Under the pieces are notes generated by a model that saw only the letters and a list, made by a program, of their open reading frames with translations, searched no databases and had not been told where the DNA came from. Positions 11,337 through 15,320 of a stretch of DNA of 35,278 nucleotides are shown here, one piece after another (position 1 is the first letter of the stretch; every line of letters starts with the position of its first letter). A program made the translations under genes and the position numbers. The DNA is from Candidatus Hermodarchaeota archaeon (GTDB lineage Archaea; Asgardarchaeota; Hermodarchaeia; Hermodarchaeales; Hermodarchaeaceae), in the NCBI GenBank assembly GCA_016839805.1, contig JAEOTO010000021.1, forward strand, positions 1-35,278, given 5' to 3'.

Positions 11337-12185
11337 CTAGGGTAAGAAGTCAATGGTGTCGATTTCCATCTTGCCCCAGTCCACCGTCCGTTCCAAGCTT
11401 GCGCGAATGATATCGATTGCCTTTGTTCGGTCATTCGGATTTATCGCTGTTAATCCATAACATTTGACGCCTAGAAGGCGTTGGACCAGATGTGGCTGCA
11501 ATGCGCCCCGGAGATCTTGTTTATTGGCGATAGCCACAATTTCGCCACTGACGCCTTGCTGTTGTAAAAAGGAAATGATGTCCTTGGTTTGTAAAACGTT
11601 CTCGAGGGTTGAATCTGTAACTAAAAAGACGATTCGGCTTCGAGAGAAGAGTGCTTTCCACAGCTTTCGGAATCGTTCTTGCCCAGCAAAATCCCAGGTC
11701 ACAATTTCATAGGTTCCGATGCGTGCCCCTTCGATTTTTTGGATGTCAATGCCAATGGTTGGAATGTAGGATTGAGGAGGTTCCCCACCATTCAGGAGCT
11801 GAACAATGGTGGTTTTGCCCACACCACCATAGCCCAGAATGCTGACCTTTAATTTAGTGGTGACGTATTTGTCAACTTTCCTCATGAAGTCTTCATATTC
11901 TTCGTCGTAACTGATGACTCGCCGGAATTCTTCGGTGACCTTTTCAAGTTTTTCCATTAATGCGCCTTCCTCATCAACGTATTCAGCGCATAAGACTACA
12001 ATACCCCGACCAAGTGGCTGACCGACGTATTTGGTTTCACCAATTTGTTCGAATAGGAGGCTCTGTGCGTCTTTAACCCGTGAAGCAAAATTCTGGACTT
12101 CAATTGTGTTAACGTCAATGATCCAAAACTTCTTCTGTACAACAATCTCGTCGCGAGCATCAATAATGAAGACGTGATGGATCAA
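11337..12185 (-). CDS. Arf/Rab-like small GTPase with N-terminal longin-like domain
   Basis: G1 GYGGVGKTT, G2 PTIG, G3 WDFAGQERF, G4 NKQD, G5 TA. N-terminal ~110 aa MIHHVFIIDARDEIVVQKKF is longin-like. GAGGTG SD before TTG. Confidence 0.85.
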   Translation of the reverse strand: MIHHVFIIDARDEIVVQKKFWIIDVNTIEVQNFASRVKDAQSLLFEQIGETKYVGQPLGRGIVVLCAEYVDEEGALMEKLEKVTEEFRRVISYDEEYEDFMRKVDKYVTTKLKVSILGYGGVGKTTIVQLLNGGEPPQSYIPTIGIDIQKIEGARIGTYEIVTWDFAGQERFRKLWKALFSRSRIVFLVTDSTLENVLQTKDIISFLQQQGVSGEIVAIANKQDLRGALQPHLVQRLLGVKCYGLTAINPNDRTKAIDIIRASLERTVDWGKMEIDTIDFLP

Positions 12186-12326: not shown

Positions 12327-13847
12327 TTACACATTGAATATCTGATTGTACTTGGTCTCCAGGTATTTCGTGAAGGGTTGCGCGTTTAATCCTTCACCAG
12401 TGATGCGTTGGATGAGATCCTCGGGGTCGTATAAGTTTGCTTTTCTGTGAACCTGGTCTACCATCCATTGTTTGATCGTTCCAAACTTACCTGATTCAAT
12501 TTGATCTAACCAATCTGGTATGTCTTTTTCCATCACATTGATTAATTGTCCACTGTAAATATTTCCGAGTGCATAGCTGGGGAAGTAACCGTGATACCCT
12601 GACGCCCAATGCGTATCTTGTAAGACACCTTCCGAATCGTTTTTGATATTAACTCCCAGGTATTTTTCGTATTTTTCGTTCCACACACTGGGGAGGTCTG
12701 AGATGCTGATTTTATCTGCGAATAAGTCTCGCTCAATTTCAAAACGGATAATTACATGTAACGAATAGGTGACCTCATCAGCTTCTATTCGGATTTTAGT
12801 GCGTTCAACTCTATTTACTCCTTGAGCGAATTGGTCAACGCTAATGTCTTTGAAGGTGTTGTTTGTTAATTTGTTTAGAATGGGGAGAAAGTGATTAATG
12901 AATTCTGGAGATCGACCTACTATGTTTTCGACGAATCGTGATTGTGATTCATGAATTCCATAACTGGCTGCATCACCCCATGGTTGAAATTTGGCGTCGG
13001 AATGAAAGTTTTGTTCATAGAGAGCGTGTCCGCCTTCATGAAGAACCGAATAGATTGAGGATGTAAAATTATCTTCATAGTAATGGGTGGTGATACGCAC
13101 ATCATCGAAATATCCAGCGGTGAACGGGTGTTCGGTTTCATCAATACGACCTCCAGCGTGCTTCGATGTAGTGTCATATTGAATAAACTCCGTGAGTGCC
13201 GTACCAATTTTTCGTTGGGTTTCAATTGGCACTTTTCGTGTGAGGAACGTGAAATCCTTTCCTTTCATCGCTGCTGTATATTTATTCACAAGGGGAATGA
13301 GGCTGTTGCGAAGATCGGTAAAAACTTTTGAAATAGTCTCCTGGGTCATTTTGGGTTCGAATAAGTCGATAAGTGCATCATAGATGGTGGGGGTTTTTCG
13401 GACCTCCATGAGGATTTCTCCCCGTTGTCTGACTAGATCCACCATTTTCGATAGTTCAGGTTCGAAGAGTTTCCAATCGCTTTTTGCTTTAGCCTGCTTC
13501 CAGACATTCACAGCCAGCGTAGCCTGTTTGGCTAGCGCTGCAACGAGTTCCTCCGGAAGTTTTGTCATTGCATCATATTCACGGCGAAAGAGGTAGATGT
13601 TTCGTTGCTGCACTTCATCTAGTTTGTTTAAGACGGATTTGCTTTCAGCCTTGTCTAACAGTGTACCAATTGCGGGGTTTGTTGCCATGCGATGTTGTAA
13701 TTGGCCTAAAAGCGCCATCTGTTCTCCTCTTTGGGGGAATGCCATGGGAGGAATGTAAGTTTCCGTATCCCAGGCCATAATCGTCATAATCGATTGTGTT
13801 AATGCGATTTCCCGGTATTTTGCTATAAGCTCGTCATAGACCGCCAT
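12327..13847 (-). CDS. Carboxypeptidase, peptidase family M32 (carboxypeptidase Taq/Pfu)
   Basis: HPF, DVRITT, HEGGH, HESQ, IRIEADE, QDTHW and YFPSYALGN motifs. Confidence 0.96.
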   Translation of the reverse strand: MAVYDELIAKYREIALTQSIMTIMAWDTETYIPPMAFPQRGEQMALLGQLQHRMATNPAIGTLLDKAESKSVLNKLDEVQQRNIYLFRREYDAMTKLPEELVAALAKQATLAVNVWKQAKAKSDWKLFEPELSKMVDLVRQRGEILMEVRKTPTIYDALIDLFEPKMTQETISKVFTDLRNSLIPLVNKYTAAMKGKDFTFLTRKVPIETQRKIGTALTEFIQYDTTSKHAGGRIDETEHPFTAGYFDDVRITTHYYEDNFTSSIYSVLHEGGHALYEQNFHSDAKFQPWGDAASYGIHESQSRFVENIVGRSPEFINHFLPILNKLTNNTFKDISVDQFAQGVNRVERTKIRIEADEVTYSLHVIIRFEIERDLFADKISISDLPSVWNEKYEKYLGVNIKNDSEGVLQDTHWASGYHGYFPSYALGNIYSGQLINVMEKDIPDWLDQIESGKFGTIKQWMVDQVHRKANLYDPEDLIQRITGEGLNAQPFTKYLETKYNQIFNV

Positions 13848-13869: not shown

Positions 13870-13877
13870 CTTTAAAA
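13870..13877 (-). promoter_or_regulatory. TATA box of M32 carboxypeptidase gene (probably leaderless mRNA)
   Basis: TTTTAAAG on the minus strand at -30..-23 from ATG 13847, with no SD motif. Confidence 0.45.
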
Positions 13878-13940
13878 GAAAGACGGATAGTGGAAAATAT
13901 CACTTCATTCAAGCTAAGATTGTGTTTTCTAACACAACGA

Positions 13941-14146
13941 TAAGACTCAGCTCTTTATGGCAGTGATGAACCGTGGAGTTTAAATTAGTTTTTAAGACTT
14001 CCTTGTTGAGGTCCTGGTCGGTGACCAAGAACCAAGGTCCTTGACTGGGTAACATCGCCGGAACGGCGAGTAGAGCCTGTGGACTAGTCGACAAAGGTCG
14101 ATGGGATGAAGCAGGAAGCCCTATCCTTCGGGTCGGGGTAGTTCAC
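13941..14146 (+). mobile_element. Possible non-autonomous IS605-family derivative (PATE/MITE-like); left boundary uncertain
   Basis: Clear right end ...GGGGTAGTTCAC. Only a degenerate left-end-like motif (TAAGACTCAGCTCTTTATGGCAGTGATGAA, 13941-13970). Confidence 0.4.
14005..14146 (+). ncRNA. Orphan TnpB omega-RNA (reRNA)-like scaffold / IS200-IS605 right end
   Basis: TCGCCG-GAA-CGGCGA hairpin (14055-14069); CCTGT(14076-80)/GCAGG(14111-15) stem enclosing TCGAC-AAAG-GTCGA; GAAGCCC...TTCG...GGGT terminal hairpin; TGAA(14107-10)/TTCA(14142-45) pseudoknot; ends in GTAGTTCAC. No tnpB ORF upstream. Confidence 0.7.
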
Positions 14147-14222
14147 CCGTACAACCACTGCCTTTAAGGCGTCTGTAGGATGCATAGATAGTCTCAATCA
14201 AATGATTGGGGTGAGACGCCTT

Positions 14223-15320
14223 ATGGGCGATGTTTCACACTTATTGAAATCACATATTCAAGAAGGCAAACCCTACAATCCGACAGCCATCCTTAGACTC
14301 TTGTATCAAGAACGTCCTGAATACGCCAGGTTAATGGGAAACGAATTACCCTATGGTATCTCTCCACAAGCCCGACAAGCAATCATCGATGAAATAGACA
14401 ACGCTCATCTTTATCCTGATTCCTCTTATTACGAACTCAAACAAGCTTTGTCAACTTATACCGGATTTCCAGACACCCATATTGTTGTGGGTAATGGGTC
14501 TACGCAGTTTATTGACGCCTTATACTATGGCTTCCTTAATCCCGGAGATGCCGTACTCTTTGCTCCACCTGATTATGCTCCCTATCGAATTCGGCTTGAC
14601 ATTTACGGAGGTACTCCTCAGCTTGCGCCACGGTCACCGCCTGATTATGGTTGGTCGGTTGATCACCTAATCGAATCAGTTACCCCCGAAACAAAAGAAA
14701 TCGTCATTGTCAGTCCTAATAATCCAGTAGGTAACTGTATACCCGAATCAGAGTTACGGCGGCTACTAGAACTAGATCTACTCGTTGTTGTCGATGAAGC
14801 TTATTATGAATTTGCTGGAACTACGCACAAGCCACTCATCCACGAGTACTCTAACCTTATTATCACTCGGACTTTGGCTAAAGCTTTTGGATTTGCGGGG
14901 CTTAGATTAGGTTACGCGATTACTAATCCAGGGTTAGCCGCTTACCTCACCAAAGTGATGCACCACTTCCCCGTCAATCGCATCACAGCGAAAGCGGCAA
15001 TCGCGGCTCTAGAAGACACTGCTTATTTAGATTTTGTCATACGGGAGATCAAGAAGGGAAGAGAGTATCTCGAGGCTGCTCTCAATTCTCTTCCTAATGT
15101 CAAGGCTTACCCCTCCAACACGAATTTTGTCCTCACGAAATTTTCTGCTCCAGACGCTAGCTCATATGATATTACACAACAACTAATCAAAGCAGGTATC
15201 ATTGTGAGGGATTATACAGGAAAAACTGGGCTCGATGGCCAATTCGTTCGAATTACTGTCGGAACCCAGAAACAGAATGAAACATGTGTCGCTGCTATCA
15301 AACATGTTCTATCGCATTGA
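14223..15320 (+). CDS. hisC: Histidinol-phosphate aminotransferase family (PLP class I/II) protein
   Basis: GNELP, YPD, VVGNGS, SPNNPVG, VVDEAYYEF, RTLAKAFGFAGLRLGY, RITVGT. GGGGTGA SD before ATG 14223. Confidence 0.85.
   Translation: MGDVSHLLKSHIQEGKPYNPTAILRLLYQERPEYARLMGNELPYGISPQARQAIIDEIDNAHLYPDSSYYELKQALSTYTGFPDTHIVVGNGSTQFIDALYYGFLNPGDAVLFAPPDYAPYRIRLDIYGGTPQLAPRSPPDYGWSVDHLIESVTPETKEIVIVSPNNPVGNCIPESELRRLLELDLLVVVDEAYYEFAGTTHKPLIHEYSNLIITRTLAKAFGFAGLRLGYAITNPGLAAYLTKVMHHFPVNRITAKAAIAALEDTAYLDFVIREIKKGREYLEAALNSLPNVKAYPSNTNFVLTKFSAPDASSYDITQQLIKAGIIVRDYTGKTGLDGQFVRITVGTQKQNETCVAAIKHVLSH

Follow-up and report, generated by a model that had tools for sequence, protein, structure and literature searches.

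What kind of genetic element separates the divergently transcribed genes of an M32 carboxypeptidase (12327–13847, minus strand; PF02074, E 2e-172) and HisC (14223–15320, plus strand; TIGR01141, 310 bits against a cut-off of 276.55), and what could an RNA made from it guide? In the window, i.e., the whole stretch of 35,278 nucleotides analysed here, this intergenic region was assigned in a preliminary description to an orphan guide RNA locus of the TnpB type. The hisC start at 14223 is conserved and aligned in relatives. The best reading is that the M32–hisC feature is a protein-free derivative, of the PATE type, of a TnpB-only (IS1341-like) IS200/IS605 element, a kind of element that has already been published. 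Judging from its sequence, the mini element retains both transposon ends, the tnpB promoter and the omega-RNA. The window also encodes (11337–12185, minus strand) an Arf/Roc/Ras-type small GTPase with an N-terminal extension, which is typical of Asgard archaea.

Extent and insertion of the mini element

The non-autonomous IS200/IS605-type mini element is 218 nt long, contains no open reading frame and occupies positions 13929–14146 on the plus strand, as delimited by ten copies in the host genome and by its exact absence from 11 congeners. The preliminary description had placed the start of the feature at 14005 and overlooked the left end: the homology continues upstream to 13929 and comprises the TT(A)T motif, a 10-nt leader, GAGAAGAC and a hairpin that resembles the right-end hairpin. 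From left to right, the element consists of the left end, a TATA box, a 5' hairpin, the omega-RNA and the right end, with the scaffold making up its 3' part.

The target motif to the left of the element (13925–13928, plus strand) is host DNA and reads TTTT, the consensus being TTAT, which is found in 15 of the 25 scored copies. The left end (13929–13966, plus strand) is homologous to that of a tnpB element on contig C41; it contains the 10-nt leader, the tetranucleotide AAGA (13942–13945), which, from the IS608 pairing rule, we take to be the DNA guide, and a subterminal hairpin (13947–13966) that is eroded in the M32–hisC copy (12/20 positions as in the consensus, -1.8 kcal/mol). The right end (14115–14146, plus strand) consists of a putative DNA guide GAAG, a hairpin at 14118–14139 and the terminal TCAC; TTCAC is invariant in 32 aligned copies, and the identity between copies stops at 14146, where the terminal GTAGTTCAC ends, as had been described. 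The terminal hairpin is also present, but its UUCG cap is a variant, most copies having TTCA. The near-terminal palindromes at the two ends are similar in direct orientation, and there are no terminal inverted repeats. No protein-coding gene was found within the 218 nt, and no tnpB ORF upstream of the scaffold. The earlier statement that no tnpB coding remnant is visible holds for the zinc-finger and RuvC part, whereas the scaffold itself resembles, in one frame of the core, the C-terminal tail of TnpB (SPERRVEPV...MKQEA), which in the M32–hisC copy contains a stop.

A BLAST search of the region against the host genome (2.31 Mb, 86.7% complete) identifies nine further full copies (74–86% identity, E<=1e-28). 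All ten copies end at GTTCAC, and their 3' flanks are unrelated, so that copies with other flanks, for which a BLASTn search had been proposed, do exist. The designation as an orphan, in contrast, is untenable given these ten copies and the intact cognate-type tnpB genes on C41 and C22. The M32–hisC copy (contig C8) scores 155 bits on the family model, which was built with this copy included, and ranks fourth among the ten; strongly decayed copies are found as well (L017, L142, L146). The exact core pattern matches Ca. Hermodarchaeum yapensis and three other Asgard MAGs, and the class scoring above 120 bits is limited to the host genus, probably Hermodarchaeum, among the 121 Asgard genomes scanned. 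Of 39 distinct copies with the mini-type core, collected from genomes and metagenomes, not one is attached to tnpB; therefore, the family spreads as a protein-free lineage. Two loci, L013 and L130, are alike in the left flank and the element and differ in the right hairpin and the right flank, which can be read as inter-copy recombination, guide exchange or an assembly chimera. Four elements of about 45 nt in the host genome (G000; C19:8575, C39:4280, C45:7723 and C29:695) consist of a fused left and right end only, as expected from core deletion between the two hairpins.

The M32–hisC intergenic site is empty in all 11 congeners that have the locus: exactly 218 nt are absent, without a target duplication, and the empty sites read TTTT, ATTT or AATT followed by C(G/A)GTACAACC. 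Conversely, the host genome holds empty TTAT sites for copies present in other genomes (L012, L031, L027, L050). Insertion was precise, after TT(A/T)T and without duplication; an 8–9-nt duplication is seen in two other copies of the family. To insert precisely 3' of a short motif and to leave no duplication is characteristic of IS200/IS605 elements (PMC3119063; Meers preprint 10.1101/2023.03.14.532601).

Structure of the scaffold RNA

By its architecture, namely stem 1, stems 2 and 3, the right-end hairpin and the TCAC end, the scaffold at 14005–14146 is recognizable as a TnpB-type omega-RNA. The predicted RNA 5' end, placed near 14007 from the TATA spacing, opens a 5' hairpin domain (14007–14049, plus strand), in which the stem 14013–14019/14043–14049 shows two-sided changes in six of the seven pairs and encloses a loop motif at 14025–14037. 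Stem 1 (14055–14069, plus strand), which coincides with the TCGCCG-GAA-CGGCGA hairpin reported previously, carries the loop GAAC (14061–14064) and is indicated by covariation and by a topology as in the ISDra2 structure (PMC10097598). Stem 2 (14076–14079/14112–14115) and stem 3 (14084–14104), which together cover 14076–14115 on the plus strand, are likewise indicated by covariation, and the previously noted GCCTGTGGA at 14075 and TGAAGCAGGAAGCCC at 14107 are found in place. Over 32 copies, 95.5% of the cells in the helices are paired, compared with 24–41% in slid controls, and two-sided changes are recorded for 17 of the 33 pairs, a count that, the copies being related, does not represent independent events and carries no p-value. 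Single-sequence folding performs no better than with shuffled sequences (z -1.08), which is not significant, and was dropped as support. The covariance-model check proposed earlier gives no Rfam match above threshold, the only match being a sub-threshold one to RAGATH-18 (26.8 bits against a gathering score of 44.9).

The pseudoknot probably forms between the stem-1 loop GAAC (14061–14064) and GTTC (14141–14144). In the C22 scaffold, both sides are changed (GAGC/GCTC), which keeps the loop pairing and breaks the TGAA/TTCA pseudoknot proposed earlier; the latter is further disfavoured by the disruption of one of its pairs in 9 of 16 tnpB-linked scaffolds. The loop pairing is thus supported by this one compensatory change and by the analogy with ISDra2, whose structure shows the 3' UUC paired to the loop of stem 1 instead of to the partner that the sequence had suggested (PMC10097598). 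The conserved 5' loop (14025–14037 in the window) resembles the RENQ codons of tnpB, with a 10-nt exact match around nt 796 of the L085 CDS; it also resembles stem 1 of the tnpB-linked scaffold, and both resemblances may be due to chance.

Promoter and pattern of conservation

Upstream of the scaffold lies an archaeal TATA box, TTTAAAT (13979–13985, plus strand), homologous to the box TTCAAAT of the tnpB promoter. It is one of two TATA-like boxes that had been proposed at 13979–13996; the other, TTTTTAAG at 13989–13996, falls within the unconserved spacer. This spacer (13986–14006, plus strand) is of fixed length and free sequence, with a pairwise identity of 0.36, the flanks being at 0.24–0.28. 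The distance between the TATA box and the RNA 5' motif TGAGG is 29–30 nt in 33 of the 34 measurable copies, as expected of an archaeal promoter, and points to a start near 14007. The box would then drive a transcript of the ~140-nt scaffold plus ~16–20 nt of flank.

When the ten copies are compared pairwise, identity reaches 0.97 in the TATA box, 0.96 in the end, 0.95 in the core and 0.90 in the 5' loop motif; the spacer stands at 0.36, the left hairpin at 0.59 and the guide/3' flank at 0.28. The M32–hisC copy agrees with the consensus in 7/7 positions of the TATA box, 34/36 of the core and 9/9 of the end. The TATA box, its spacing to the RNA and the helices are conserved, with covariation, and the spacer is saturated; therefore, the pattern is not one of random decay, and the suggestion that the feature might be a decayed IS end with random mutations is contradicted. 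Orthologous filled pairs have 60/65, 64/65 and 63/65 identical core positions versus 37/46, 41/46 and 40/46 in the left end, numbers that are small and not relied on, and part of the conservation may predate the insertion. In a metatranscriptome, run X1, 5% of words are shared, and a contig of 160 nt, at a depth of 7.8, represents a relative's copy at another locus.

Candidate TnpB partners and transposase

The host genome contains 13 TnpB-like loci, two of which, C41 at 89 bits and C22:21756 at 72 bits, are the only ones that match the family covariance model. Both encode TnpB with all three RuvC residues (D-E-D) intact, so that a tnpB is indeed present in the genome. The C41 element shares its left end, the TTAT motif and the right end with the mini element and has the box TTCAAAT ~23 nt before the tnpB ATG; by homology, the TTTAAAT of the mini element appears to be this tnpB promoter, inherited. 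The cores of the mini element and of the tnpB-linked scaffold are collinear over 87 nt from the loop to the end and differ by seven whole-pair swaps (three in stem 1, four in stem 3). Because the stem sequences differ, the true TnpB partner may be unassembled or lost. No intact close TnpB was found in G002, G005, G008 or G012, though copies of the mini-element family are present there. The cognate TnpB protein scores 388 bits on IS200_TnpB versus 211 on IS607_TnpB, both under the cut-off.

None of the 19 genomes of the class, which are incomplete (the host genome, 86.7% complete, has no TnpA), yielded a Y1 transposase with these ends, and no resolvase matching the mini element was found. The sole Y1 transposase in the 19 genomes (L091) has ends that differ from those of the mini-element family. 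The C22 tnpB locus (C22:22975–21756) lacks a left end, and the same is true of L033, L038, L039 and L118. In G000, L038 and L039, a tRNA-like 3' end immediately precedes a locus of the C22 type, and the right flank is shared by several congeners; G002 and G005 have lost most of the ORF but retain the promoter and the omega-RNA. Two other TnpB-like proteins of the host (C26:95408–96727 and C46:3292–4353) seem, by eye, to miss the usual RuvC-II glutamate (LGALD/LGALN); these proteins use another scaffold, and their active site would be inactive or rearranged. The guide of the G010 tnpB element (L104) matches an empty TTTAT-adjacent site of the host genome (C21, minus strand, 200717).

The guide and the hisC promoter

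The would-be guide (14147–14166, plus strand) lies outside the element, in the host hisC promoter, which in 11/11 empty alleles contains the conserved GTACAACC motif and a TATA box, TTTAAG (14163–14168). That the guide overlaps the hisC promoter was described earlier, and the overlap reaches as far as the TATA box; since the site is empty in 11/11 congeners, without duplication, the guide consists of hisC promoter sequence that was there before the insertion. Conservation in 12/12 genomes extends to the divergent promoters of M32 and hisC and to the GTACAACC motif (14149–14168, 13871–13879), and a regulator-binding site may be present. In the filled allele, the guide is preceded by TTCAC, not by the TT(A)T motif. 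The guide search against host and viral sequences that had been proposed returned no other target above chance in the genome, where the best TTNT-adjacent match is 7 nt, i.e., at chance level, and no exact match to motif plus guide in 2.9 million viral contigs. Viral copies of the element were not found either. Read-through from the element towards the co-oriented hisC could occur.

A parallel family in another Asgard lineage

A second family of protein-free, promoter-bearing omega-RNAs is present in another Asgard family (G058, G066 and G073; L139, L141, L153–L155, L159–L172). It has a left end of the same type and a TATA box, from which 30–31 nt lead to a different 5' hairpin, and its core is almost identical to its own tnpB-linked scaffold; among the 20 loci examined in the three genomes, 14 are protein-free copies. 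Thus, the design is recurrent. A related form with a different upstream region is found in G027 (L032, L174, L177). This parallel family and the possible homing footprints of 8–12 nt described below are the additions to what is known.

Proposed mode of action and alternative explanations

The reading that we favour, with a probability of roughly 0.7, is one of homing by a guide RNA in trans. The inherited TATA box would drive the scaffold RNA plus flank; a TnpB such as that encoded at C41:10495–9290 would take up this RNA in trans; the loaded TnpB would cut element-free alleles only, in which the motif and the flank are rejoined; and repair from the filled allele would restore or spread the element. 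The feature is a TnpB-type omega-RNA that has its own TATA box and no nuclease of its own, and it probably acts in trans for the protection of a non-autonomous element, as one of the two options in the preliminary description had it. Because its left hairpin is eroded and its motif, TTTT, is non-consensus, the M32–hisC copy itself is unlikely to be mobile and would serve as a weak homing guide at most. TTTT may be a weak motif; with an archaeal (Sulfolobus) TnpB, weak motifs still support homology-directed editing (PMC11043419).

In two copies, TTTAT is directly followed not by the left leader but by the first 9 nt (C41:21397) or 8 nt (C4:7805) of the right flank of the respective copy, and in a copy of the second family (L162), the left leader is likewise replaced by 12 nt of its own right flank. 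These replacements, which are not seen in the M32–hisC copy, lend indirect support to homing at the level of the family, as they could be footprints of TnpB break repair, in which a cut target would be incompletely trimmed and then primed at microhomology; other routes are possible. A broader proposal is that such cassettes, with the inherited promoter, the added 5' hairpin and the recoded scaffold as their features, are a dedicated, recurrent Asgard class of guide genes that persist, protein-free, by homing via TnpB in trans even where access to a transposase is lost, the 8–12-nt replacements being cut-and-copy footprints; we put this forward tentatively and consider it doubtful as a whole. 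The mini-element family supplies many natural pairs of guide and empty site and possible in vivo homing footprints, the mini element is a single-guide design found in nature, complete with an archaeal promoter, and the seven natural base-pair swaps probe sequence versus structure recognition by TnpB.

An unlikely alternative, although the most probable of those considered, is that selection acted on the family as a guide as long as it was mobile and that the C8 copy, no longer guiding, is a dead passenger. The left hairpin at 12/20 to the consensus, the non-consensus TTTT motif, the lack of a matching transposase among the genes found and the existence of strongly decayed copies are compatible with this, but the TATA box (7/7), the core (34/36) and the end (9/9) are intact while the left hairpin and the spacer have drifted, and the copy ranks fourth of ten at 155 bits on the model that includes it. 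Considerably less probable is that the conservation reflects requirements at the DNA level or homogenisation, i.e., transposase recognition or gene conversion, and not RNA function. The end hairpins of such elements act as single-stranded DNA structures, and the difference between L013 and L130 is what inter-copy recombination would give; however, internal helices and TATA spacing are not among the known requirements of transposases, end-only elements of ~45 nt exist in the same genome, and the copies differ by compensatory changes instead of being identical.

The preliminary description also considered domestication for regulation, in which the RNA would guide TnpB or a nuclease-dead TldR-like protein to the hisC promoter. 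Nuclease-dead TldR repressors reportedly have guides that overlap promoters; here, the guide spans the hisC promoter as far as the TATA box, and the C26 and C46 genes seem, by eye, to lack the RuvC-II glutamate. Nevertheless, we regard this as very improbable: the insertion is private to one genome, the guide predates it, and the overlap with the promoter follows from the insertion point; the filled allele lacks the motif, and the best other TTNT-adjacent match, of 7 nt, is at chance level; the scaffold of C26 and C46 is different (15.7 bits or no match to the family model), and the matching TnpBs are catalytically intact. Hence the M32–hisC locus is unlikely to be a gene regulator. A regulator of the TldR type in particular was rejected on the D-E-D residues of the C41 and C22 TnpBs, the mismatch of the other TnpBs to the scaffold, the unconserved locus and the lack of a motif-adjacent target. 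A guide against viruses or plasmids is the least probable of all and largely refuted, as nothing was found in its favour, the guide is host sequence that is conserved at orthologous positions, and no exact match exists in the 2.9 million viral contigs.

Comparison with known systems

The mini element resembles the PATEs of Haloquadratum walsbyi in its near-terminal palindromes, shared with IS605-type elements, and in the lack of inverted terminal repeats and of a target duplication, a length too short for a transposase, strain-specific insertions and end-only, core-deleted forms (PMC3119063). Like PATEs, it is multicopy, shows lineage-specific insertions, has ends in common with tnpB-bearing elements and contains no coding gene; the Haloquadratum PATEs are mobile without an evident intact TnpA (PMC3119063). 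Unlike these, the Asgard element has a documented conserved promoter, a covarying omega-RNA and an extra 5' hairpin. The omega-RNA itself is comparable to that of ISDra2 (PMC10097598), with a GGAAY-loop stem 1 that here, too, probably pairs with the 3' UUC, the 3' strand of stem 2 at -35 to -32, a right-end hairpin and the guide directly 3' of the end, but its core is shorter, its sequence is different, and it does not overlap a tnpB gene. A stem CCUGUGGA...GAUGAAGCAGGAA is shared with RAGATH-18 (RF03064), the reRNA of IS607 TnpB (PMC11061315), from which the scaffold differs in a score below the gathering threshold, in ends of the IS200/IS605 type and in that no resolvase was found; identity with the RAGATH-18/IS607 reRNA was rejected given this sub-threshold score and the absence of a serine-recombinase element. 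Unlike the TldR repressors, the present system has intact matching TnpBs, a locus that is not conserved and a target without an adjacent motif, and it keeps both transposon ends.

Stand-alone omega-RNAs have been described as acting in trans, with a biological role stated to be unknown (PMC10691335); if the homing class proves true, they would gain a testable role in nature. Close parallels in this respect are such omega-RNAs and the PATE-like ISGst elements of Geobacillus stearothermophilus, which, like the mini element, are protein-free and have the same ends as nuclease-bearing elements of the genome (10.1101/2023.03.14.532601); in all of these, an omega-RNA would act in trans with a guide that equals the right flank and hence the empty site (10.1101/2023.03.14.532601; PMC10691335). 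In contrast to ISGst, no matching TnpA was found for the Asgard mini element, which is further distinguished by seven base pairs swapped relative to the cognate scaffold, by the TATA box TTTAAAT in place of TTCAAAT and by the added 5' domain.
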